In this document: positions 2,814 to 17,291 of the stretch, in pieces
Numbering within the stretch: the stretch's first letter is position 1
Layout: the number at the start of each line of letters is the position of its first letter
From: Candidatus Thorarchaeota archaeon
GTDB lineage: Archaea; Asgardarchaeota; Thorarchaeia; Thorarchaeales; Thorarchaeaceae
DNA: 17,475 bases
Direction of reading: 5' to 3'
Assembly (NCBI GenBank): GCA_003345545.1
Contig: PRDH01000029.1
Location: 1-17,475 of the forward strand
Made by a program: the position numbers and the translations under genes
Notes under the pieces: generated by a model
Database searches by the model: none
What the model saw: only the letters and a program-made list of their open reading frames with translations
Told to the model about the DNA's origin: nothing

Positions 2814-5030
2814 TTGAACGAACCGGGAAATCAAGACACGCCAGAAGATGAGGATCCCGAGAGTCCGCGAGATTCAGATAGACCAATAGAGTTGCTCCCA
2901 AAGTCCCTATTGCCATACCATCCCCGCGTAGGTGACCCTCTCGACCTGCACGTCGACCTCAGCGTTGGAGTAGTCCTTGGGCGTTCGGAGTCATTCCATC
3001 GGAAGTACCACTCTGTAGGTCTGGGCATGGTGGGAGGTGTTACAGAGACCTCTGATGATGTTCTGACCTCACTCATGGGGATGCCCGTGAAACTTGACCT
3101 CATGAGCCCTCATGTCATGTTTGTTGCAGGAAAGAGGGGATCGGGAAAGAGCTATACGCTTGGAATCATTGCTGAGGAAATTGCCCTAGCCATGGAGCGC
3201 CGAGAGATTGAGGTTGCTGCAGTCGTAGTGGACACTGTGGATGTCTTTCGACAGATGGTTGATGCAAATGACGAGCAGGCAGATATTCTCAGGAAGTGGG
3301 GCTATGAGGCAAGGGGATTCCCGGTGAATGTCTACATACCCCGAAGGACATACGTAGGACTCCCTGAAGAGATAAAGAAGAAGGCTCGTCTCTTTCCATT
3401 GTCCATTGGGCCACGAGAGCTCTCCGTTTCAGACTGGGGATACGTACTGGAGAAGGGTGGTACACTCAGTACTGCTATGGAGAACTTGATAGCTGAAACC
3501 TTGGACGCTGTACGAAAGGGATACACCCTCGAGTCCGGAGAGCATATGCAGCTCAAGCGAGATTTCAGCATCACAGATTTGATCAACTGTATCGAGTCCA
3601 ATCCGACCATTGTCGAGTTCTACAAACCTGCTTCAAGGACTGCCATTATCCAGAGGCTACGGCGTGCTGATAGACTAGGAGTCTTCATTCCTGGCGGCAC
3701 AAGCGCTCAGGACTTAGCTGTCGCAGGGCAAATCACAGTCATTGATGTAGCGCCTCTCGGTTCGGATGCCGAGGCCGTGCTCGCAATTCTGACAAACATG
3801 CTGTGCCGTCAAGTCCTGACCTATCGTATGGCTTGGACCGATGAGGGTACGAGTGCGCGGGAAGAACTGCCACCCACCTGGTTAATCATTGATGAGGCCC
3901 ACACCCTTGTACCACGGTCAGGAGCTACCCCTGCCAAGGATGCGATTGTGAGCTATGCAAAGCTTGGACGAAGGTTTGGCTGTAGTCTTGTTCTTTGCAC
4001 ACAGCAACCATCAGCAGTGTCCGATGAAGCAATCTCACAAGCAGATATCATCATCTCTCACTCACTGTCCCATGATGATGACATTAGAGCTCTCCAACAT
4101 CGGGCTCCAGCTGTGATGCCAGATCAATTCCGCGATAAGGCGTTCATCAGCGGTCTTCCGCGAGGCGTTGCCCTGGTCTTCGACCAGACCACTGAGAACA
4201 GGAGGGGTTTCATCATGCAGGTCCGTCCGCGTCTCTCACAGCATGGAGGTACTGATCGACTATCAGGCCTCTTTGAAGCGGTCAAGCTCCTAATGCCAGA
4301 GGAGGCTTCTGAGGAAACAGCGCCAGCCGAAGAGCCCAAGGCGACTGAGCCAATTGAGGGATCAGCGGATGAGTACGAGGGTTCGGAAGAAGCATTTGCT
4401 GAGGAGTTGCCAGAAGTACCACGACCTCCGCTGAAGTTGAGCAAAGAGGACTGGCTGCTTCTCGATGAGTGGATGCGAGACTATGTCAAGACTCTCTTTG
4501 ACCACCAGAAGCAGGGCTTCTCCATTACCGATGAACCGTCGCCTCGCCTTGAGGAACCTGTCGTCGCAGAGGAAGTCATGCCTTTCGAAGTTGAAGTTGA
4601 AAGAATCAGGACTTCGGACTTTGACTCTTCAAGGGTACTCGTGAAAGCATTCGGTCCGGTTTCGAAGGAACTTCTCTCGAAGGCAATAACAAGGAAGGTT
4701 CTGTATAGTCCGGCATCGCATGGTTTTCTCTTCACTTCAGAACATGACATTCGGGATACTATTGTCGTGAACCGCGAAGACAGTGATGCGTCAGATCTCA
4801 TCAGCTTTGCTGCAAATGCAATAGATACAGCTGGCGCAGAGCTTGAGCAGATGATTCATGAAGATGGTTTCACTTTCGTCTGCTACCGACGAGAGGGCGT
4901 TCGCATAGTATTCTCTATTGCTAGCAGCCAGTCGTTATTGAGCTTACCAATTGTTGTCGTTGGTGTCAACCGAAAGTCAGTCATCTCCATTGCCGACAAG
5001 ATACGAGCTGTCCTTCGTGCTCCTAGCTGA
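2814..5030 (+). CDS. HerA/FtsK/VirB4-superfamily P-loop ATPase (DUF87-type) with acidic linker and extra C-terminal domain
   Basis: Walker A PHVMFVAGKRGSGKSYT, VVVD strand, Walker B WLIIDEAH, and the HerA-type LGRRFGCSLVLCTQQPS (Arg-finger region and TQ motif). An E/P-rich linker spans about aa 495-545. Confidence 0.88.
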   Translation: MNEPGNQDTPEDEDPESPRDSDRPIELLPKSLLPYHPRVGDPLDLHVDLSVGVVLGRSESFHRKYHSVGLGMVGGVTETSDDVLTSLMGMPVKLDLMSPHVMFVAGKRGSGKSYTLGIIAEEIALAMERREIEVAAVVVDTVDVFRQMVDANDEQADILRKWGYEARGFPVNVYIPRRTYVGLPEEIKKKARLFPLSIGPRELSVSDWGYVLEKGGTLSTAMENLIAETLDAVRKGYTLESGEHMQLKRDFSITDLINCIESNPTIVEFYKPASRTAIIQRLRRADRLGVFIPGGTSAQDLAVAGQITVIDVAPLGSDAEAVLAILTNMLCRQVLTYRMAWTDEGTSAREELPPTWLIIDEAHTLVPRSGATPAKDAIVSYAKLGRRFGCSLVLCTQQPSAVSDEAISQADIIISHSLSHDDDIRALQHRAPAVMPDQFRDKAFISGLPRGVALVFDQTTENRRGFIMQVRPRLSQHGGTDRLSGLFEAVKLLMPEEASEETAPAEEPKATEPIEGSADEYEGSEEAFAEELPEVPRPPLKLSKEDWLLLDEWMRDYVKTLFDHQKQGFSITDEPSPRLEEPVVAEEVMPFEVEVERIRTSDFDSSRVLVKAFGPVSKELLSKAITRKVLYSPASHGFLFTSEHDIRDTIVVNREDSDASDLISFAANAIDTAGAELEQMIHEDGFTFVCYRREGVRIVFSIASSQSLLSLPIVVVGVNRKSVISIADKIRAVLRAPS

Positions 5031-5501: not shown

Positions 5502-6542
5502 TTAGTAGAGCTCCCTTGAGGAGGCTCTGAGGTAGCTTACGATTGCAAGCGCCGCATAGACAATGAATGCCAACAGGATTATCGAGGTCTTTAGGAAGAA
5601 GTCAGTTCTATTGAAGAGTTCAACTGCGAGAAACAGCCCTATAACAATAATGTTAGTCGCTCCGCCCATCGTGCTGTCTCTCTTGACCCTGAGAACTACT
5701 TTAACTAGGACCATAATGGATACTATTCCAAGAGAAATCCAGTTGATATAGTTCTGAAAGAGGACTGAGAGGTCCAGAAAAGGGATGACTCCAAGAGGTG
5801 TTGGGATCGGGGGCAGATAAATCACTAGGAATATGGAGAAGAGGATGAGTTCTCCCAGTCTTATCCAAATTGTCGGCGTTTTCGTGTACACTTCCCCATA
5901 GAGCCCTTTATCATACTCCTGAGCACCATAGTAGATGAAATATACAGGGGCACCAAAGCTGAGGGCATTGACAAGGCACTGCGCAACGCCATATGTGACA
6001 TCTAACCAGAAATCAGTCCATGTCTGGAGAATCGTGTTCCATACTACCATATAACCAGGAATGAACACAAACATCACGAATGCTGGAAATATGATGAGCG
6101 CCAGTGCCACGATGATGCCGAGAAAGGCAGCCGGCTTGCCCCCTCCTAGCTTACCAAGGCCAACAAGACGAAACACATGCACGGCAACAGCGAGTCCTTC
6201 TACAATCGCGATAACAGGTGTTGCCATGGGCAGTACGAACAGCATCAGGACAAAGAGAGCATTTGCTCCATAGAACATTCTCCATCTGAGAGGAACTGCG
6301 GTGATGGTCTCATCCATGATATGGGCAGTATTCGCTAGTCTGTACCGCTGGTAATAGATGGTGCCCACCCAGGGTAAAGAGAAGACGATAGGTGCTGCAA
6401 GATAGTGAAAAAGCAGATTAAAGAACGGATCAGCAAAGGGCATCATCTGCGGGATGAACAGCATCAGCAAGAAGAAATAGATAGGCCCGGCTATAGCCAA
6501 TAATACAACGGTCAGTCTTGACATCAACCAATCCGGACTCAA
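5502..6542 (-). CDS. Polytopic integral membrane protein of unknown function (roughly 8-10 TM segments)
   Basis: 346-aa ORF with many 18-25 aa hydrophobic stretches. TTG start with a TATA-like element about 36 nt upstream. Confidence 0.8.
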   Translation of the reverse strand: MSPDWLMSRLTVVLLAIAGPIYFFLLMLFIPQMMPFADPFFNLLFHYLAAPIVFSLPWVGTIYYQRYRLANTAHIMDETITAVPLRWRMFYGANALFVLMLFVLPMATPVIAIVEGLAVAVHVFRLVGLGKLGGGKPAAFLGIIVALALIIFPAFVMFVFIPGYMVVWNTILQTWTDFWLDVTYGVAQCLVNALSFGAPVYFIYYGAQEYDKGLYGEVYTKTPTIWIRLGELILFSIFLVIYLPPIPTPLGVIPFLDLSVLFQNYINWISLGIVSIMVLVKVVLRVKRDSTMGGATNIIVIGLFLAVELFNRTDFFLKTSIILLAFIVYAALAIVSYLRASSRELY

Positions 6543-7674: not shown

Positions 7675-8946
7675 ATGGCAAATGACAATAGCTACGGTTT
7701 TGCTACTTGGACTTCTTTTATTGAGGAGTCTCAAATACGTGCACTTCTCAAATACAAGGTCAAGTACTATTTTGCAGGCGGAAAGCCCGGCATAATCCCT
7801 ACTGATACTTTCGCTGACATCATGGCTGAACTGAGTGTTAGGTATAAGAAAGACCCGATGATGGCTCTGGATGACCTGAACTACGGTCCAACGGGCGGCG
7901 CACCATGGTTCCTCAAGACGCTGGCCAAGCGAATGTGCAAGGTCCGTAAGATACCTATTGATTGCGAAACCCAATGGGAAGATGTATCCATTACGAACGG
8001 GTCGCAGCAGGCGCTCTACGCCCTGTTGGACACATTGATTGATCCTGGCGATGTCATTATCACGCCCGCTCCCGCATACCTCGGATTTCTCGTTCCTGCT
8101 GTGAAACTTGGTGCAAGAGTGATCACTGTGCCCACCGACAACAAGGGGATTATTCCGGAGTTTGTCGAACGAGCTATTCACCTCTCGAAGATCAAATTTG
8201 GCAAGAATCCTGACTTGCTCTATGTTGTTGCTGACAGCGACAATCCAAAGGGAACTACCCTGCCCATGAATAGACGTAGAGCTCTGTTCGATATCTGTGA
8301 GAACCATAACATCCTCCTTCTTGAGGACGCAGCGTATGCTGAGATTCAGTTCAAAGACACTCCCAAGGCCATCAAGACCCTCGACAAGGATAACTCTCGA
8401 GTCGCTTACCTTGGCACCAGTAGTAAGGAGGCAGCTGTCTTGAGAGTTGGATATTCAATACTACCCGATAATGTCAGAGAGCAGGTTCTCAAGGATAAAG
8501 GATACCTTGACCTATGTACTACAACACTTGTCCAACGCATCCTTGACGAGTACTATAACAAACACATCGATGATGCCATGAGAGTTGCCATTCCATTGTA
8601 TAAGAAGAGGTGTGAGGCAATGGCAAAGGCAATTGACGAGTCATTTCCAGCCGGGACGCGTAGTGACCCGACCGGAGGTTTCTTCATCTGGTGGCAGAGT
8701 GATAAATCTGATTTCGATTCAAGTAAGTTCATGGAAGATGTGGCGATTCCCAATGACCTGCTCTATGTGCCTGGAGGCCCCTTCTATCCTATCACCGGAC
8801 ATAAACTTACAGCTGACAGTAATGACTTGGAGCCAAGCGTACCAGAAGGCAATACTATGCGCCTGGGCTTCTCATATGCTCCTCCTGACGTCATCTATGA
8901 GGGGATTTCCCGACTCGGAAAGCTATTGTCAAAGGAGCTGGGCTAG
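7675..8946 (+). CDS. PLP-dependent aminotransferase, class I/II (2-aminoadipate/aromatic aminotransferase-like)
   Basis: FAGGKP, LNYGPTGG, ITNGSQQAL, NPKGTT, EDAAY, PLP-lysine motif GTSSKEAAVLRVGY, GGFFIW and MRLGFS. Confidence 0.92.
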   Translation: MANDNSYGFATWTSFIEESQIRALLKYKVKYYFAGGKPGIIPTDTFADIMAELSVRYKKDPMMALDDLNYGPTGGAPWFLKTLAKRMCKVRKIPIDCETQWEDVSITNGSQQALYALLDTLIDPGDVIITPAPAYLGFLVPAVKLGARVITVPTDNKGIIPEFVERAIHLSKIKFGKNPDLLYVVADSDNPKGTTLPMNRRRALFDICENHNILLLEDAAYAEIQFKDTPKAIKTLDKDNSRVAYLGTSSKEAAVLRVGYSILPDNVREQVLKDKGYLDLCTTTLVQRILDEYYNKHIDDAMRVAIPLYKKRCEAMAKAIDESFPAGTRSDPTGGFFIWWQSDKSDFDSSKFMEDVAIPNDLLYVPGGPFYPITGHKLTADSNDLEPSVPEGNTMRLGFSYAPPDVIYEGISRLGKLLSKELG

Positions 8947-8979: not shown

Positions 8980-10695
8980 TCATAATGAGAAGTTGACGAA
9001 GATAGTGCCGCCATTCTTCATCTGACCAGTGTATGCGCGATTGTAGGGACCGAATAGATCACTGAAGCCTGAATTGATTGCCCACTCGATCCATGACCAT
9101 GAAGACTCTTGTCCTAGCTTGCCCTCGGCAAACTGACCAAAGGCCCAACTGAGATATCGTTCTAGGTCCATCCTGAGGCCTAGATGAGTTGCTGCTTCCT
9201 CTTTTGATGCGGCAGCGATTCTTGGCTCTATAGTTCTGAGTTCGCTATTGAGTTTGGCGTGACATTCCAGTATCAGATTCTCAAGGTTCTCAAGTTCCTG
9301 ATTCATCTCATCGAACTGGTTCTTCTTTCTGTACTTCGAAACTCTCCCCATGATATTGAACAAGTTCCTTCCCTGAAGAACCGGCATCTCTTTCCCTTCA
9401 AGTGATTTTGCCAATTGCTCATTCCAGGGAGTGTTGAAGTAGACCCGTGGATACTTGACGAACATAGGGAACGGGGCTGAGATTGCTCTCGCACTGGGTA
9501 TCACTTGTGCATAGTATGCTGTCTCGCCGGCACCTCCAACATGCGTGACGATTGGTATTATTGAGTCGATTGCTAATTGTCTGGAGTCTACGCGGAGCGA
9601 GATACTCCGAGCAATATCACCGAGATATGGTGTATCTGCGGATGTTTCAATCTCAATCTTCTCAGAGCAGGATGGGCAGGTTCCAGTGAGAAGGGCAGTA
9701 GTCCCTCTTTCCTCATAGTGAAACTCTGTTCTTGCTTTGTTGCAGGTCTCTCCGGGGCATTCGTAGAAGAATGGCACGTAGTCAGTTCCTCTGAGACCAA
9801 TTCCAGGATTGTATCCTTTCTCCTCGATCAGTGTGGTCACTTCATTGAACATGGCCAGGAATCTCTCCCGGTTCTCACGAGCCAGAAGGAACTCTAGACC
9901 CTCGACAAGAAGGTCTCTGATACCCTCAGAAGATGCTGAGAGCAATGGGATGCCCAAATCGCCTTCTATATTGAACAGCCTGCCCAGTGTTCGTGCTGCC
10001 CATTCTGCCAGAGTTGTGGAGTTGGTGTAACTCCACCGAAGAATCGACAAGGCCTGCTCAAGCCGCTCATCTAGAAGCGTTCTAGAAGATCCCTCTAGTG
10101 CTTTGAACATCGGCCTGTAGGTTGTCCTGATATCGTCCTCAACCTGATTGTACCAGTCTCTCGCTGGTAGGGGGAGCACACTCACTGGTGAGTTCTCATA
10201 GCCCTCAGGCACTGGAATGCTCACGAGTGAGCACTCTGAGCCCAGTACAGGTAGGCGGATATTCGTGAGTTCTGGCTGAACAATGTCATAGTCCGCAAGA
10301 CAGAAGAAGGGTGCAAGGTCAAGTCCTCTCTCAGCGCATAGACTGGCAAGTCGTCTTGCTGTTGCCGCCTTGTTCAGGACATACACAGGACCCCCCAGAA
10401 CCACAGTCTGGTGCGCCGACTCAATGGCTCCGTTCTTCAGAGAGCTGATACTGGATTTGGTGTCTTCTGTGAGGCATCCAAGGTCCCGATTCGAGGAGAT
10501 GAGGGCTCTCTCAAGAAGCTTCATCCGTTCGTCAATATGCCAGAGAGTCTTCTCATACTTCTTCATGAGCTCTGGCACTCGATCACAGATCCCATTCATT
10601 GTGAGCGGCGGACTATCATACAGTGTCTGAGCGAGCTTGGTGTCTTTCCCTTTCCAGACGAAGTCGTGATACACATCATAGACGCTCGGCTTCAC
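8980..10695 (-). CDS. bshC: Bacillithiol biosynthesis cysteine-adding enzyme BshC homolog
   Basis: SAHQTVVLGGPVYVLNKA matches BshC TGQQxGLFxGPLYxxxK. LADYD matches xEDHD. VGGAGETAYYAQV matches GGPGExAYxAQL. It also has a PR motif, a C-terminal coiled coil and GQES for LQER. 571 aa, directly downstream of bshA. Confidence 0.85.
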   Translation of the reverse strand: MKPSVYDVYHDFVWKGKDTKLAQTLYDSPPLTMNGICDRVPELMKKYEKTLWHIDERMKLLERALISSNRDLGCLTEDTKSSISSLKNGAIESAHQTVVLGGPVYVLNKAATARRLASLCAERGLDLAPFFCLADYDIVQPELTNIRLPVLGSECSLVSIPVPEGYENSPVSVLPLPARDWYNQVEDDIRTTYRPMFKALEGSSRTLLDERLEQALSILRWSYTNSTTLAEWAARTLGRLFNIEGDLGIPLLSASSEGIRDLLVEGLEFLLARENRERFLAMFNEVTTLIEEKGYNPGIGLRGTDYVPFFYECPGETCNKARTEFHYEERGTTALLTGTCPSCSEKIEIETSADTPYLGDIARSISLRVDSRQLAIDSIIPIVTHVGGAGETAYYAQVIPSARAISAPFPMFVKYPRVYFNTPWNEQLAKSLEGKEMPVLQGRNLFNIMGRVSKYRKKNQFDEMNQELENLENLILECHAKLNSELRTIEPRIAAASKEEAATHLGLRMDLERYLSWAFGQFAEGKLGQESSWSWIEWAINSGFSDLFGPYNRAYTGQMKNGGTIFVNFSL

Positions 10696-10703
10696 GATAA
10701 TAC

Positions 10704-10715
10704 GTCCTCCTCACC
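10704..10715 (-). promoter_or_regulatory. Shine-Dalgarno site (GGTGAGGAGGA) for bshC overlapping the bshA stop codon
   Basis: The minus strand reads cggTGAggaggacgtattatcGTG, which suggests a translationally coupled bshA-bshC operon. Confidence 0.65.
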
Positions 10716-11877
10716 GTTTGACGACTTCGTTGAACACATTCTCGTACATAGGAACAATCTTGTTGGCGTCAAAAACATTGACACGTTGTCGACCTGCCTT
10801 CGCCAGTCTCTTTCTCTCGCCCTCATTCTCAAGGAGGTGAAGAATTGCCTGCGCAAATTCCTCCTTCTCGAAGCCCTTCGTGACAATTCCATCCTTGTCT
10901 GCACGAACAAGCTCAGGAATTCCGCCTGCAGGTGTTGTAATCACAGGAAGACTACAGGCCATCGCCTCCAAGAGCGTCAGAGGCATTCCCTCAAGTGTCG
11001 AATTGAGCAAGAAGATGTCAGAGGAACACATGATTTCCTGCATGTTGCTTTTCACACCCAAGAGATGTACATTATCACACAGTTTCAGGTCCTCTATTCG
11101 CCGCTCGACGTCAATACGTGTGGGTCCATCGCCTGCAATCACGAGTCTTGCATTTGGGTTATGGTCTACGACAGTGCGCATGATCTCGACAAGTTCAACG
11201 ACACGTTTGACCTTTCGAAAATTGGAGGCGTGAAGCAATATCCTATCCTCTGGTTCTATCTCAAAGGCATCCTTCTCACTCCGCACTGATACACACCCCC
11301 TCTCAACAAGAAGTCTGATCCCTGAAACCTTGGAGAACTGCGTTGTATCAATGAAGTTCGGGATGACATGAATATCCCTCTTGATTCCGAGCTCTTTGTG
11401 AGCTTTGTCTGCTAGGAATTGGGAGACCGCAGTCACAGCATCAGCATTCTCCACGGTGTGCTGGACAACTGGCTTGTATGCAGGATCCTGACCTAGTGTA
11501 TGCACATCAGAGCCATGAAGTGTGACCACATAGGGAATCCCATTGATCTCACGAGCCATATATGCCGCCATCGCATGAGGAATCGCATAGTGCGCATGGA
11601 TGAGGTCCAACCCCGCATCCTTTGCAACCTTGACGATTTTTGATGTGAGCGCCATAGTATAGGGGGGTCCAATCGTGTCAAACAGAGGATAATCAAAGCT
11701 GTCCACAAGGTCGACATGGACGCCCTCTGTCTGCTGCCACATCAATGAGAAGGGTCTCTGATAGGTGATGAAGTGGATTATGTGTCCTTTGTTCGCCAAG
11801 TGTTGGCCGAGTCGGGTTGCAACATGACCGCTACCGCCAAATGAAGGGTAGAGATTCACACCAATTCGCATAGCCAT
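10711..11877 (-). CDS. bshA: N-acetyl-alpha-D-glucosaminyl L-malate synthase BshA (GT4 glycosyltransferase)
   Basis: BshA-diagnostic YPSFGGSGHVATRLG, HFITY, YPLF, HAHYAIPHA, TLHGSD and HASNFRKVKR, plus the GT4 motif EGMPLTLLEAMAC. Confidence 0.92.
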   Translation of the reverse strand: MAMRIGVNLYPSFGGSGHVATRLGQHLANKGHIIHFITYQRPFSLMWQQTEGVHVDLVDSFDYPLFDTIGPPYTMALTSKIVKVAKDAGLDLIHAHYAIPHAMAAYMAREINGIPYVVTLHGSDVHTLGQDPAYKPVVQHTVENADAVTAVSQFLADKAHKELGIKRDIHVIPNFIDTTQFSKVSGIRLLVERGCVSVRSEKDAFEIEPEDRILLHASNFRKVKRVVELVEIMRTVVDHNPNARLVIAGDGPTRIDVERRIEDLKLCDNVHLLGVKSNMQEIMCSSDIFLLNSTLEGMPLTLLEAMACSLPVITTPAGGIPELVRADKDGIVTKGFEKEEFAQAILHLLENEGERKRLAKAGRQRVNVFDANKIVPMYENVFNEVVKR

Positions 11878-11974
11878 ACCTTCTGACTGGTCTATTCCTG
11901 TTCCCCTTTAAGGCACTTGGTCTGCACAGTCGAACATGCCAAACCTTGATTAGATACTGAAAGAACACTCACAT

Positions 11975-12628
11975 ATGAGCTCTATCCTTGTTGTGGTTGC
12001 ACACCCCGATGACGAGAGTCTGGGTGCCGGCGGTACGATACGAAAACATGCTGACATGGGGATTCCTGTCGACGTGCACTGTATGACGGGCAATGGAATA
12101 AGGAACGACGAAATGAAGTCTGCATGCGCCCAGCTTGGTGTGCGGAACCTCTATCTAAGCGAGCGCGATGACTTTGCCATTGACATGAGCCTTCGAAATG
12201 AAGTCGTCGGAGCGATTCTCAAATCGCGTCCGAAGATAGTGATAACTCACTTCTCTGGAGACTACAATGTGAATCATCAACACTGCGCACAGATAGTCTT
12301 CGATGCTGTTGAATGGGCATCCCACACAACACTCTTTGATGATGCACACCGCGTTGAAAGAATCTACAACATGGAGATCAACACCTTGATTTCCCGACCC
12401 CACGTGTATGTTGATATTTCGGACTCGTTTGAGTATGCTTTCAACGCGATCAAAGAACACAAGTCACAGATTGAGAAAGCCGATCTCTTCTATGAGAAGC
12501 TCTACGATGCGAGGACACGTCTTCGCGGAGTCCAAGCGAAATGCGAGCGTGCTGAGGCCTTTTCGATTACCCTTCCTGAACATGCTGGACCGTTCTATAG
12601 AGAAAACAGCGTTGAAAGTCTTGTGTGA
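11975..12628 (+). CDS. bshB: PIG-L/LmbE-family deacetylase, probable BshB (GlcNAc-malate deacetylase)
   Basis: ILVVVAHPDDESLGAGGTI metal motif, RxxE...A...LG, HKSQ and RG...AEAF. Divergent from bshA across a 97-bp gap. Confidence 0.8.
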   Translation: MSSILVVVAHPDDESLGAGGTIRKHADMGIPVDVHCMTGNGIRNDEMKSACAQLGVRNLYLSERDDFAIDMSLRNEVVGAILKSRPKIVITHFSGDYNVNHQHCAQIVFDAVEWASHTTLFDDAHRVERIYNMEINTLISRPHVYVDISDSFEYAFNAIKEHKSQIEKADLFYEKLYDARTRLRGVQAKCERAEAFSITLPEHAGPFYRENSVESLV

Positions 12629-12646: not shown

Positions 12647-13033
12647 TTAGTCTGCCTTTCTCTTTCTGGCAGCTAGAAGTTGCTTGAGTTCGCCCATCAT
12701 GCTCATGCCTCCCCCTGGCGAGGGCGGTGGAGCTGTTGGGGCTCTTGCCATGCCAGCAATTGGCTGTCCTCCGGCTGCTGAGGGTCCTGCTGATATGGTT
12801 GCGCCACCAGAGGCGCGGCTCGAGAGAGAATCAATCCTTGATTCCAAAGCGCTGACTTGCGATTGGAGCTGAGCTGTTGTTGCCTGTAGATTGCTAATGG
12901 CTTCTGTGAGCTTAGTAGTGATGATACTCACAACTTCCCCGAGCTGGCGAATCTTCTGTGTATTTGGATCCTGAAGTGCCCACTCGAACTCCCCCATCAC
13001 AGCATCTTCAAGTTCCTTCTTCTCTTTGCTCAT
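12647..13033 (-). CDS. Small protein: coiled coil + Gly/Ala/Pro-rich linker + C-terminal basic amphipathic helix; candidate actin-regulator-like protein
   Basis: 128-aa ORF with its own GGAG site and TATA. Heptads span about aa 27-74, followed by APTAPPPSP and a terminal GGGMSMMGELKQLLAARKRKAD. The CDS call is solid; the function is inference. Confidence 0.8.
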   Translation of the reverse strand: MSKEKKELEDAVMGEFEWALQDPNTQKIRQLGEVVSIITTKLTEAISNLQATTAQLQSQVSALESRIDSLSSRASGGATISAGPSAAGGQPIAGMARAPTAPPPSPGGGMSMMGELKQLLAARKRKAD

Positions 13034-13111: not shown

Positions 13112-14488
13112 TCATATCGATTTGATTGTCTTCTCAACAGCAAGCTTCGCTGTATTCGATACTTTCTTGACCAGCGCCTCTGTGGGACCCTCACACGTGA
13201 TTCTTATCACCGGTTCTGTACCTGACGGTCGTACTAGGACCCATCCCTCTTTTAGAGTAATCCCAATGCCGTCCACTGTTAGAACCTGCACGACATTCTC
13301 CAGTGCCTTAGGGAGCACCTCTGCAAGAGCTTCCATTACCTGTGCCTTCTTCTCATTTGGACATTTCAGTTTGGTCTTCACTAGAGGATATGCTGGAATG
13401 CCTGAGATCAGCTCTCCAAGACTCTTTCCTGTTCTTGCCATTTTTTCAAGAATCCTGCAGGCTGTGAGGAATGGCTCCGGCGCAAGGTGGAACTCTGGGA
13501 GAATGAACACACCACAGGCCTCGCCACCCATGACTGCATCAGTTTCCTTTACTTTGACTGCAACTTGGATATCCCCCACAGGTGTTCGAATTATCTTGCC
13601 GCCTCTTTTCTTGACGGTTTCGTCAAGCACCAATGAGCTATCCACAGTGGTGACCAAAGTCCCCCCCTTCGTAGTGCCAAGATAGTCTTGAGCGAGAAGC
13701 GCAATCGTTCTATCTCCTCTGACTACCTCGCCCTTCTCAGTCACAAACACCACCCTATCAGCATCACCATCATGAGCGATACCAAGGTCTGCACCAATCT
13801 CCTTCACCATCTGAATGAGATCACCAAGGGAGCTCTCATCTGGTTCAGAAACTCTTCCTGGAAAGTGTCCGTCCGGCTGACTGTTTATCGTGACGATCTT
13901 GCTAGCAAGTCTCTGCATGAGATATGGAGTGAGAACAGATGCTGCGCCGTTACCCGGGTCAACTACTATTGTGAATGACTTCGACCTTATCAGCTCTGCA
14001 TCGCACCTTGCTAGGATTGCCTCGATGTGTTCGTCAGCAGCGCTTTCTGTTGTGGACTCCTTTCCCAGCTGATTCCAGGGTGCAACCTTGAATTTCCTTG
14101 ATACATAGATCCGCTCAATCTTCTCTTCCTCTTCGGGTGTAAAGCCCATACTATTCTTAGACCAGAATTTTACTCCCGTATACTCTGGTGGGTTGTGCGA
14201 TGCAGTAACCATGACGCCCGCATCGAGTCTTCTGTTCATCACTGTGAAGGCCAGCGTAGGTGTCGGGATGATGCCTGTTCTGACTACGTTCACCCCTGTG
14301 GATAGCAAACCAGCAGAGAGCGCATCGGCGACCATGAGCCCTGTGGTTCTCGTGTCTCGTGCTAGGAGGACCGTTCCTCCACCCAGCAGTGTTCCGAGTG
14401 CTTTTCCTAAGTCCAATGCCATCTCAAGGTCGAACTCTTTTCCGTAGACCTTTCGCACGCCCGTTGTTCCGAAGAGTCTGTCCGCCAT
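13112..14488 (-). CDS. glmM: Phosphoglucosamine mutase / phosphomannomutase-phosphoglucomutase (alpha-D-phosphohexomutase)
   Basis: RLFGTTGVR, phosphoserine loop VTASHNP, metal loop DGDADR, GGEACG and VRPSGTEP. Sugar specificity is not certain. The start could be 14506. Confidence 0.85.
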   Translation of the reverse strand: MADRLFGTTGVRKVYGKEFDLEMALDLGKALGTLLGGGTVLLARDTRTTGLMVADALSAGLLSTGVNVVRTGIIPTPTLAFTVMNRRLDAGVMVTASHNPPEYTGVKFWSKNSMGFTPEEEEKIERIYVSRKFKVAPWNQLGKESTTESAADEHIEAILARCDAELIRSKSFTIVVDPGNGAASVLTPYLMQRLASKIVTINSQPDGHFPGRVSEPDESSLGDLIQMVKEIGADLGIAHDGDADRVVFVTEKGEVVRGDRTIALLAQDYLGTTKGGTLVTTVDSSLVLDETVKKRGGKIIRTPVGDIQVAVKVKETDAVMGGEACGVFILPEFHLAPEPFLTACRILEKMARTGKSLGELISGIPAYPLVKTKLKCPNEKKAQVMEALAEVLPKALENVVQVLTVDGIGITLKEGWVLVRPSGTEPVIRITCEGPTEALVKKVSNTAKLAVEKTIKSI

Positions 14489-14714
14489 GGAGCTCACAGG
14501 TACCATGTCTGTATGCTCTAGAGAAAAAGATACCTGAACAATACATTACAGTGAAATTGGGTCGTTATGCGATTGTCACTCGTCCTCAAACCAATGATCG
14601 AGCACCCCAAGGAGTTCAATAGGTTACTGCGCGAATTCGTTTCTTGGGTTGAGGAAGAGGGTTAGCTCACCGTCTCTCACCTTTGTTCTGTTCTGGTCTC
14701 GTTGCTCAATATAT

Positions 14715-14729: not shown

Positions 14730-14884
14730 GTGCCATCAGTAACTTAGGCTTCGAATGCGCAACCACTGTTCAGGCCGATAGACTGCATGGGGATCTTTCA
14801 TGAATACACACAGAGACTCTTCATATGTCAATGGCGTAGCCACGTATGCATTCCACATCGATTCTACAGCTGGAGGACTGCGCT

Positions 14885-15433
14885 ATGAGTAGCACCTATG
14901 ACTTCTTGTTCAAAATCGTGGTCTTAGGAGAGGGCGCAGTGGGAAAGACAGCCATAGTCACCCGCTTTTCTCACGGATTCTTCAGGACTGATTACAAGAC
15001 TACTATTGGCTCCCAGTTTGCTGTCAAGAATGTTGAAATTGTAAAGTCGGAGCGCGAAAAGGTGACCGTGAAACTGCAAATCTGGGATGTTGCAGGGCAG
15101 TCTCGGTTTCAGATTCTCAGACCCATGTACTATAGGGGTTCGAGCGGTGGGATACTCGTCTATGATGTGACGAGACGAAGAACCTTCATCGTGCTCCAGG
15201 AGTGGCTAGAGGAACTCCACAAGGCGCTTGGAAAGGATATACCACTGATTCTAGTAGCGAACAAGACCGATCTTCCCGACCGCGTGGTTGAACCATCAGA
15301 GGGACGCGAATTCGCGGACAGCCGTAGCATGCCATATGTCGAGTCGAGCGCAAAGACTGGAGAAGGAATCATCGATATCTTTGAGCAGCTTGCTAGGGTC
15401 CTCGTCGCTGATCGTGAGCAGAAGGAAATGTAG
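14885..15433 (+). CDS. Rab-like Ras-superfamily small GTPase (eukaryotic signature protein)
   Basis: G1 GEGAVGKT, G2 TIG, G3 WDVAGQ, G4 NKTD and G5 SSAK. Rab-family motifs KLQIW, YYRGS and LVYDVT, and a YDFLFKIVVLG N-terminus. GGAGGA at 14872-14877 supports ATG 14885. Confidence 0.95.
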   Translation: MSSTYDFLFKIVVLGEGAVGKTAIVTRFSHGFFRTDYKTTIGSQFAVKNVEIVKSEREKVTVKLQIWDVAGQSRFQILRPMYYRGSSGGILVYDVTRRRTFIVLQEWLEELHKALGKDIPLILVANKTDLPDRVVEPSEGREFADSRSMPYVESSAKTGEGIIDIFEQLARVLVADREQKEM

Positions 15434-15520: not shown

Positions 15521-16105
15521 ATGACAGACCCCGATGAATCCTATCCCGTAAACACCATCCCTGCACTCGCCTGGGCACTGGACCTGTACTTCAAAGCTGG
15601 AGGTGCTTTCAAGGAAGGCGGTGTAGTCGAGCTTGTGTTTCCTGCTGGCAATCACAAGGAAGTCATGAGAAAGAAGGGAGAGCATGAGAATATCCTCTGG
15701 ATGTCAAAGAAGAATCTCTATGTGAGAGCTCGGTGCAACTACGATAAGGGATGCAGCTTCAACTCTGAGAGAATCGACGGCGGAAACAGAGAGGCTCTGA
15801 AAGGTCTGTCATGGGACCAATCAAATGACCGTGCCTTCTTCATCGCCGTGCGAAAATGGTTGATTCGATTGAAGTTCGACTTTGTCACTCTCATCCGTGC
15901 TCTGAATACAATGTGCGACAAACGGGTTGAGTTACCGCTGACCACCAAGTATGGCCGCTCGTTCAAGAAGTTCGATGAATATCGCAAGAACAAGTGGCCC
16001 GAAGACGCAACACCCGACAACAGGGATAGATTTCTCGAAGAGGTTCTCGTTCGGGTGTCTTTCTGGATACAATCTGCAGCCCAAGTCAACGCTCTCAAGG
16101 ACTGA
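15521..16105 (+). CDS. Hypothetical soluble protein (194 aa)
   Basis: Clean ORF with globular-like composition, co-directional with its neighbours. No motif recognised. Confidence 0.8.
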   Translation: MTDPDESYPVNTIPALAWALDLYFKAGGAFKEGGVVELVFPAGNHKEVMRKKGEHENILWMSKKNLYVRARCNYDKGCSFNSERIDGGNREALKGLSWDQSNDRAFFIAVRKWLIRLKFDFVTLIRALNTMCDKRVELPLTTKYGRSFKKFDEYRKNKWPEDATPDNRDRFLEEVLVRVSFWIQSAAQVNALKD

Positions 16106-16160: not shown

Positions 16161-17291
16161 GTGTTATACCTTGGTCTTCTTGTCAATCCGATTGCGGGGA
16201 TGGGTGGTCGTGTCGGCCTCAAAGGGACTGATGGTGTTGTTGAAGAGGCAATTAGCCTTGGAGCGACTCCTGTGGCACCAGTTCGAGCAATGGAGTTCTT
16301 ACAGGCTCTGGCTCCCCTTGTCCAAGGCAACCCACGACTGGATCTGATTGTCTGTCCTCTCCAGATGGGAGAGGATGTCAGCCAAGAGATGGGTTTGGAG
16401 CACAAAGTAGTCGATCTCAAGATAAGTGACACGACCAGCTCTGAGGACACGCGTCAGTGTACTCTTGCGCTCTACAAGGCGGGAGTTCGTCTCTTGGTCT
16501 TTGTTGGAGGCGATGGCACAGCACGCGACATCCTAGATGCGATTATGGCGGAAGGTCTCGATGACCTTCTCGTGCTGGGTGTTCCGTCTGGAGTGAAGAT
16601 GTACAGCGGCATCTTCGTTGTGAATCCTACGGATGCAGCAGAGGTCGTCAATCTTGTTCTTGATGGAGGGGCAGGGACCGCAGACTTTGAAATCATGGAC
16701 GCTGATGAGGAGGCATATCGCGAGGACCGTTTCGTCATCCGTCTCTATGGCTACATGAAGGGGCCATCAGTTCCAGCCCGATTCCAGGGAGCCAAACAAG
16801 CCAGTCCTGAAACCATCGATGAGCACGAGGCACAGGTGGCCATTGCCAACTACATCATTGACCAGATGGTTCCTCAAGGAACCTATATCCTGGGACCCGG
16901 CACCACAGTGAAGACAGTGACCGATCTCTTGGGTGTCAAGAAGACAATCCTTGGAGTAGATGTCTATCAAAGACGTATCATGCACAATGATGTGAGCGAG
17001 ACCCAGATTATCGAGTTAGTCGATGACTTCAGCATGACATGGATCATTGTATCTCCCATCGGGCATCAGGGAATGCTCTTTGGTCGTGGCAATCAGCAGA
17101 TCAGTCCTGGCATCATCGAGCGTGTTGGTCGTGAGCATATCATTGTGATCTCAACGCTCTCAAAGCTCAAGGGAATTGAGAGTGAGACTCTCAAGGTGGA
17201 CACTGGCGACTCACTGGTAGATGAAGTGCTGAGAGGATACATCAGAGTCGTTACAGACTACAACGAAGTGCGACTAGTTCGCGTGGAGTAA
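16161..17291 (+). CDS. ATP-NAD kinase family protein (COG3199-like)
   Basis: VNPIAGMGGRVGLKGTDG, GGDGTARD, GVPSGVKMYS, GPGTT, LGVD and GRGNQQIS. GTG start preceded by GGAG. Confidence 0.88.
   Translation: MLYLGLLVNPIAGMGGRVGLKGTDGVVEEAISLGATPVAPVRAMEFLQALAPLVQGNPRLDLIVCPLQMGEDVSQEMGLEHKVVDLKISDTTSSEDTRQCTLALYKAGVRLLVFVGGDGTARDILDAIMAEGLDDLLVLGVPSGVKMYSGIFVVNPTDAAEVVNLVLDGGAGTADFEIMDADEEAYREDRFVIRLYGYMKGPSVPARFQGAKQASPETIDEHEAQVAIANYIIDQMVPQGTYILGPGTTVKTVTDLLGVKKTILGVDVYQRRIMHNDVSETQIIELVDDFSMTWIIVSPIGHQGMLFGRGNQQISPGIIERVGREHIIVISTLSKLKGIESETLKVDTGDSLVDEVLRGYIRVVTDYNEVRLVRVE

Follow-up and report, generated by a model that had tools for sequence, protein, structure and literature searches.

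We describe a cluster of three bacillithiol-type biosynthesis genes in a 17,475-bp stretch of DNA, hereafter the window, from a Candidatus Thorarchaeota archaeon, and propose that it is the thorarchaeal representative of an archaeal version of the bacillithiol pathway that is old and has been inherited vertically. The cluster comprises bshA, a gene for a BshC-like protein and a divergently transcribed gene for a PIG-L/LmbE-family zinc deacetylase of a BshB-like, archaeal type. On profile comparisons and a structural model, its product is probably bacillithiol or a close variant, a reading that we favor with reasonable, though far from complete, confidence. We base this on homology and fold, on the structure of the operon, and on co-inheritance and phyletic pattern, from which we infer every substrate and the product.

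In the proposed pathway, BshA would move an N-acetylhexosamine onto L-malate, most likely N-acetylglucosamine (GlcNAc) from uridine diphosphate (UDP)-GlcNAc, supplied through the phosphoglucosamine mutase (GlmM) encoded nearby. The PIG-L zinc hydrolase would then strip the acetyl group, and the BshC-like enzyme, with a class-I aminoacyl-tRNA-synthetase-like fold, would couple cysteine to the free amine. The resulting cysteinyl-aminosugar-malate thiol, bacillithiol or a close variant, would be used as a low-molecular-weight thiol by DinB-family thiol transferases and in redox buffering.

Gene products of the cluster

The window is the entire contig C29 of a 2.69-Mb metagenome-assembled genome (MAG) that is distributed over 82 contigs, with estimated completeness of 92.9% and contamination of 5.4%. 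The reverse strand carries bshA (10711-11877; 388 aa; TIGR03999 equivalog) and, downstream of it, the BshC-like gene (8980-10695; 571 aa), an archaeal-type member of UPF0747/PF10079 encoding the presumed amino-acid (cysteine)-adding enzyme. The deacetylase gene (11975-12628, forward strand; 217 aa; PF02585) is separated from bshA by a divergent intergenic region of 97 bp (11878-11974) that presumably holds the promoters of both transcripts. As read from the sequence, the 15-nt spacer between bshA and the BshC-like gene (10696-10710, reverse strand) begins with GGAGG at 10710-10706, directly after the TGA stop codon of bshA (10713-10711), and a 10-nt spacer then leads to position 10695, where the BshC-like gene starts with GTG. 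A first-pass annotation of this DNA had placed three open reading frames (ORFs) at 8980-12628 and described a bshA-bshC operon with a coupled Shine-Dalgarno sequence and, at a distance of 97 bp, a PIG-L deacetylase gene running divergently; the coordinates of all three ORFs proved correct, and both features of the arrangement hold.

BshA scores 383.1 bits against TIGR03999 (382.5 bits in the genome scan), about 110 bits above the equivalog cut-off of 273.7, and matches over its full length (residues 1-387, about 250 bits) the solved enzymes of Bacillus subtilis (5D00) and B. anthracis (2JJM/3MBO), with 204 bits against those of Staphylococcus aureus (6D9T and 6N1X). The GGSG, HGSD, NFID, SNFRKVK and EX7E motifs are kept, and among the positions equivalent to S. 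aureus H118, T120, N171, K209, E280 and E288 (PMC10361700), His, Asn, Lys and the two Glu residues are retained, with Thr replaced by Ser in HGSD.

The BshC-like protein passes the Pfam model PF10079 with 52.5 bits against a cut-off of 27. A profile built exclusively from 28 archaeal-type sequences returned B. subtilis BshC (4WBD) as its sole match in the Protein Data Bank (PDB), with an E-value of 1.4e-22. The AlphaFold2 model of the window protein (predicted local distance difference test, pLDDT, 95.8; predicted template-modeling score, pTM, 0.94) matches the BshC fold seen in 4WBD, with its Rossmann core, connective peptides and C-terminal helical domain, and Foldseek places 4WBD first (E 5.9e-19, TM 0.69/0.73). 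The next-best structural neighbors are the class I synthetases LysRS and MetRS (1IRX, 7WPJ), for which 1IRX yields an E-value of 2.9e-8 and the TM scores reach only 0.37-0.41. The window protein retains Gln96, Lys109, Asp137, Gly388 and Glu391, positions that show little or no variation among archaeal and bacterial members; of the family motifs GQQ..GP.Y...K, EDHD and GPGE..Y, it has AHQ for GQQ, DYD for EDHD and GAGE for GPGE. Taken together, these profile and model comparisons identify the protein as a true BshC homologue.

A four-cysteine insert marks the archaeal-type sequences and is not present in bacterial BshC in our alignment; its cysteines correspond to Cys313, Cys318, Cys340 and Cys343 of the window protein. 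Neither Cys313 nor Cys340 varies across the 28 archaeal-type sequences, and more than 90% of them conserve Cys343. The AlphaFold2 model renders the region as a set of short beta strands, an arrangement compatible with a zinc ribbon, and this branch of BshC may bind zinc. Some class I synthetases have cysteine-rich zinc-binding inserts.

An exhaustive homologue search over 1.84 billion representatives yielded 47 clusters at E < 1e-30, followed, after a gap, by proteins of about 520-560 aa at E-values from 1e-12 to 1e-5. The named members among the strong hits derive from Thor-, Hod-, Heimdall- and 'Promethearchaeota' MAGs and from one Bathyarchaeota cluster, and their NCBI product name is 'bacillithiol biosynthesis BshC'. 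In a FastTree phylogeny of 111 sequences, which is unrooted and was built with a program that readily joins long branches, the rows divide into an archaeal-type clade of 42 and a bacterial one of 69, each with full local support. Seven of the 65 representatives of the bacterial clade were looked up, and the five that bear names are all bacterial BshC proteins (Paenibacillus, Alkalicella, Thermincolia, Acidobacteriota and Pyrinomonadaceae). A small third UPF0747 subgroup of metagenomic proteins (P0190, P0245 and P0215; about 520-545 aa) joins the archaeal-type clade at its base; two of its members, P0190 and P0245, have the cysteine insert and the sequence AHQPNF..PYYGVWKK and are devoid of the GPGE motif, and P0215 falls outside the alignment.

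The deacetylase passes the PIG-L model PF02585 with 71.2 bits, and among solved structures it comes closest to B. cereus BshB (2IXD, 52.8 bits), with archaeal diacetylchitobiose deacetylases narrowly behind. In BshB the metal is bound by His12, Asp15 and His113, together with Asp14, and the substrate by Arg53, Arg109 and His110 (PMC4101496). The HxDD + H zinc motif is kept in the window protein, where His10, Asp12, Asp13 and His101 align with His12, Asp14, Asp15 and His113 of 2IXD, as is the equivalent of Arg53. Elsewhere in the genome, a second PIG-L deacetylase (35.5 bits) adjoins another GT4 glycosyltransferase (G000:C49:17489-17821, C49:18469-18981), a pair that probably belongs to a different glucosamine (GlcN)-containing glycoconjugate pathway.

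Distribution and inheritance in Asgard archaea

The three genes share a single family-level distribution among 301 Asgard genomes sampled across the phylum, a set in which related genomes contribute non-independent counts. In the family to which the window belongs (f1, Thorarchaeia), BshA scores above the cut-off in 69 of 76 genomes, and the BshC-like protein and the PIG-L orthologue are found in 69 and 73. The corresponding counts for BshA, BshC-like protein and PIG-L orthologue are 27, 27 and 28 of the 28 genomes in family f5; 16, 17 and 17 of 19 in f12; 11, 10 and 11 of 11 in f14; 3, 3 and 2 of 3 in f26; and 0, 1 and 0 of 68 in f9, the largest of the families in which the trio was not found. 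Historically, bshC itself was found through its co-occurrence with bshA (PMC5790435). The trio is also neighboring in 20/20 loci drawn from nine Asgard families, and the arrangement is therefore no chance event. Orientations vary, with bshA and bshC co-directional and the deacetylase gene divergent in f1 and a convergent layout in f5 and f12; the f5 deacetylase gene lies 11-12 kb off, and the divergent bshA/PIG-L arrangement is conserved in f1, f12 and f26.

Phylogenies had been called for by the first-pass annotation as a means of separating vertical inheritance from recent transfer or a mis-binned contig, and the Asgard families fall into the same groupings, apart from the sampled bacteria, in the trees of BshA and of BshC. 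In the BshA tree (IQ-TREE, quick mode, C20 mixture), all 36 sampled bacteria fall on one side of a branch with support of 99, and the archaeal sequences form two groups, f1 with f12 and Bathyarchaeia (98) and f5 with f14, f26 and f18 (92), both of which recur in the BshC tree. The bacterial BshA sequences were collected with the search patterns HGSD... and SNFR..., a sample skewed to the Fibrobacteres-Chlorobi-Bacteroidetes (FCB) group from which Bacillota (HGTD) are excluded, so that the tree names no donor and no root. Vertical inheritance of the cluster within archaea is the most likely history.

A second, bacterial-type operon, with bshC, bshB and bshA in this order and co-directional, occurs in Asgard families f27 and f20 (L045-L047 and L049; genomes G238, G123, G232 and G042). 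Its BshC scores 227-280 bits against PF10079 and nests within the bacterial clade, its BshB keeps DRHPDH, and its BshA keeps ESFG and is sister to the sampled bacteria. The operon shares its phylum and presumed product with the cluster in the window and looks like a separate, bacterial-derived acquisition; judging from these sequences, the pathway seems to have entered the Asgard phylum on two or more occasions. In family f22 (e.g. G062, G102 and G259), weak PF10079 matches (E ~1e-4) occur in 10 of 21 genomes with no BshA.

The genes flanking the trio are conserved with it. The block glmM-orf128-PIG-L/bshA-bshC/aminotransferase is found in 11 of 11 Thor-type loci, within reach of each locus, with glmM adjacent in all 11 and the aminotransferase beside bshC in ten. 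In the window, the archaeal phosphoglucosamine mutase gene glmM (13112-14506, reverse strand; TIGR03990, 526 bits against a cut-off of 439) would provide precursor for UDP-GlcNAc. Between it and the deacetylase gene lies orf128 (12647-13033, reverse strand), which encodes a 128-aa protein with coiled-coil and Gly/Pro/Ala-rich low-complexity sequence and is kept at the same position and at 47-97% identity in Thor loci. We considered this protein as a pathway member and set it aside: it is cysteine-free, no Pfam or NCBIfam family matched it, and its role is possibly unrelated to the cluster. A class I/II pyridoxal-phosphate-dependent aminotransferase gene (7675-8946, forward strand; PF00155, 73.3 bits) converges on bshC; its product reached no NCBIfam equivalog, and its tie to the pathway is putative. 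Beyond glmM, the contig encodes a Ras-family small GTPase (14846-15433, forward strand; PF00071, 166.7 bits), of a group characteristic of Asgard archaea; behind it come a 194-aa ORF of no family (15521-16105) and a NAD kinase (16161-17291). On the other side of the cluster lie genes for a 738-aa HerA/DUF87-type ATPase (2814-5030, forward strand) and for a 346-aa protein (5502-6542, reverse strand) with no Pfam or NCBIfam family.

Thiol partners and alternative products

The DinB_2 superfamily includes the bacillithiol and mycothiol S-transferases, and five of its members are encoded in this genome. Their distribution follows that of the BshC-bearing families, with DinB_2 proteins in 65/76 genomes of f1, 28/28 of f5, 17/19 of f12, 11/11 of f14, 9/11 of f27, 20/21 of f22 and 5/68 of f9, and none found in 17 other Asgard families of the 301-genome sample; f13, with 3/3, is the exception to this tracking. 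Copy number in f22 rises to as many as 13 per genome. We regard the correlation as supportive context for the proposed pathway.

Several observations weigh against that proposal. The BshC-like protein obtains 62 bits from the equivalog model TIGR03998, for which the cut-off is 265.8, and a single-sequence phmmer search of the PDB did not reach BshC (4WBD) at E <= 1, which shows the extent of divergence of the archaeal BshC branch. In place of the GQQ signature of BshC, the window protein has AHQ, and the archaeal type as a whole has AHQ or GHQ. The deacetylase reaches 79.1 bits on the BshB1 model TIGR04001, below its cut-off of 182.5 (and 67.1 bits on the BshB2 model, below 195.25), and it has Tyr97 and Asn98 in place of Arg109 and His110, residues that matter for BshB activity. 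In BshA, the ESFG sugar loop has become EGMP, with loss of its Phe and Gly. DinB_2 is a broad family, the genome counts are non-independent as stated above, and no thiol has been reported from any Asgard archaeon (PMC7278568).

The dedicated redox partners of bacillithiol belong with these points. BrxA/B and YpdA/Bdr, which the first-pass annotation had suggested seeking elsewhere in the genome, were not found in the 92.9%-complete assembly: the highest TIGR04018 score was 78.8 bits in the genome scan, or 96 bits when the whole ORF was scored, against a cut-off of 339.9 for Bdr/YpdA, and neither BrxA/B (PF06491) nor BrxC/YtxJ (TIGR04019) had a match. The best proteins on the YpdA model are two thioredoxin reductases, which score 340 and 299 bits on TIGR01292 (cut-off 343) and 96 and 78 bits on the YpdA model. 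These paralogues (G000:C70:2926-3879 and C26:106395-107324) and a Nox/CoADR-like flavoprotein (C28:5503-6810) are candidates for the missing thiol disulfide reductase. As regards other thiol systems, the only protein bearing on CoA disulfide reductase was the same Nox/CoADR-like protein, at 326 bits against a cut-off of 578.8, and for gamma-glutamylcysteine the GCS2 model (PF04107), the only one searched, gave no ligase beyond a 24-bit fragment, a result that favors the proposed pathway.

The complete bacillithiol pathway announced by the first-pass annotation consequently stands as far as the gene trio and the BshA equivalog are concerned, but not in the family scores of the other two enzymes, their substrate residues or the recycling enzymes. 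That annotation had also tied its BshC assignment to the family hidden Markov model and to a structure match, and the two diverged: the former failed, while the latter placed 4WBD at the top. The trio itself, the operon, the archaeal host and the broader inference of a bacillithiol-type thiol are all supported.

The altered residues bear directly on an alternative that we consider rather unlikely, in which an intact pathway makes a modified bacillithiol in a sublineage of Thorarchaeia, f12 and Bathyarchaeia, with another sugar epimer (e.g. a galactosamine core from UDP-N-acetylgalactosamine), another aglycone or another amino acid. It is kept alive mainly by the sugar-loop change in BshA. The ESFG loop of S. 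aureus BshA contacts GlcNAc (PMC10361700), and E[ST]FG is present in 72/72 sampled bacterial BshAs and in Asgard f5, f14, f26 and f27, with ESFN in f18. All Thor (f1) orthologues have EGMP, those of f12 EGAP and one Bathyarchaeia orthologue ESAP, thereby replacing the loop Gly with Pro, and the GlcNAc-contacting Phe is lost. The capsule polymerase of Neisseria meningitidis W has Pro at the same position, and its replacement by Gly switches the donor from UDP-galactose to UDP-glucose (PMC10361700). By analogy this suggests a change of donor specificity, but the Pro/Gly rule is borrowed from a distant GT4 enzyme. The same alternative can point to the roughly 17 additional residues that Thor BshA has between its two domains and to the deacetylase, in which Tyr occupies the Arg109 position in all 15 aligned archaeal-type sequences (f1, f12, f5, f14 and f26) and Asn the His110 position in all Thor orthologues. 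The latter change is specific to Thor, with His retained in f12, f5, f14 and f26, so that the enzymes do not co-vary strictly; in addition, BshA still scores 110 bits over its equivalog cut-off, and the adjoining glmM points to a GlcN route.

In a related formulation, which we put forward only tentatively and with low confidence, Thorarchaeia, f12 and some Bathyarchaeia would make an undescribed relative of bacillithiol, for example a galactosamine-based or otherwise altered cysteine-hexosamine-acid thiol, recycled by an unidentified reductase. The suggestion of such a relative stems from the Gly-to-Pro change in BshA, the loss of the Arg109 and His110 equivalents in the deacetylase and the probably zinc-binding branch of BshC, and that of another reductase from the failure to find Bdr and bacilliredoxins.

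A more distant alternative, which we judge improbable, holds that the product is a non-thiol glycoconjugate, such as a glycolipid head group, a cell-envelope glycan or a compatible solute, onto which the BshC-like enzyme adds some other acyl or aminoacyl group. Pairs of GT4 and PIG-L enzymes also build GlcN-containing lipids, and the C49 pair illustrates other uses of such combinations in this genome; the biochemistry of BshC is unsettled even in bacteria, with no in vitro reconstitution of the reaction (PMC5790435), and both the equivalog scores of the BshC-like and PIG-L proteins and the missing redox partners would fit a product of this kind. Against it, BshA is recognized by the malate-synthase equivalog model, the trio co-occurs as strictly as in bacterial bacillithiol producers, and DinB_2 genes of the thiol-transferase type follow the same families. 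The cluster, moreover, encodes neither membrane segments nor lipid-carrier enzymes.

Finally, a recent bacterial transfer or a mis-binned bacterial contig, which the 5.4% contamination estimate and the bacterial-type operons of f27 and f20, nesting among or beside bacterial sequences, might bring to mind, was rejected as very improbable, given the archaeal GlmM and Ras-family GTPase on the contig, the six-gene synteny in every Thor-type locus examined, the presence of the cluster in 69-73 of the 76 genomes of the family, and the well-supported branches that separate the window BshA from 36 bacterial BshAs and the BshC-like protein from 65 bacterial-clade representatives, as archaeal clades in both trees. 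The same contig genes and family-wide presence bear out the archaeal (Asgard) host that the first-pass annotation had assumed.

Relation to known systems and significance

The vertically inherited bacillithiol-type pathway that we favor employs the same three families, in the same logical order, as the BshA-BshB1/B2-BshC systems of B. subtilis and B. anthracis as well as S. aureus (TIGR03999, TIGR04001/04000, TIGR03998; 5D00, 2IXD, 4WBD). It resembles these systems in a BshA that is orthologous by curated model, in the fold of BshC, in the metal site of the deacetylase, and in the co-occurrence and co-localization of bshA and bshC. It differs from them in its archaeal host, in the EGMP loop of BshA, in a deacetylase lacking the Arg109 and His110 equivalents, in that our searches of the genome did not turn up Bdr, BrxA/B or BrxC, and in being known from genes alone. 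The BshC-like protein shares about 16-22% identity with bacterial BshC, and it is set apart by its separate archaeal clade, the four-cysteine insert and AHQ for GQQ. The mycothiol pathway of Actinomycetota (MshA-MshB-MshC) follows a similar scheme, in which a GT4 enzyme, an LmbE/PIG-L deacetylase and a class-I aminoacyl-tRNA-synthetase-like cysteine ligase act on a GlcN core. The window proteins, however, score far lower on the MshA (56 bits) and MshB (31 bits) models than on the Bsh models, and MshC is a paralogue of CysRS rather than a member of UPF0747.

To our knowledge, bacillithiol has so far been measured in bacteria only. Rawat and Maupin-Furlow (2020) listed 39 BshA and 39 BshC InterPro hits in archaea, mostly in Asgard, together with only two YpdA homologues, and suggested archaeal bacillithiol synthesis (PMC7278568). 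A 2025 survey restricted to RefSeq and based on BLAST thresholds reported no archaea with the pathway (PMC12719100), a negative outcome probably attributable to the small number of Asgard genomes in RefSeq and to archaeal BshC sequences too divergent for the thresholds employed. The core idea is thus not new, having been hinted at by genomics in 2020 and being already present in NCBI product names that say BshC, and the value of this work lies in confirmation and refinement rather than discovery. Beyond the published hint, our analysis identifies the deacetylase as a third member inherited with the other two, and it adds an archaeal BshC clade with a cysteine insert, changes in BshA and in the deacetylase that are specific to lineages, what seems to be a twofold independent origin of the pathway in Asgard, and the correlation with DinB_2.

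If chemically confirmed, the product of this pathway would be the first glycoside-type low-molecular-weight thiol in Archaea. The archaeal branch of BshC and its insert of four cysteines could also help to close a long-standing gap concerning this family, namely its cysteine donor and reaction. Should the proposed pathway operate, it would bear on the handling of oxidants and electrophiles in mostly anaerobic lineages related to the host of eukaryogenesis, where it may contribute to oxidant tolerance.

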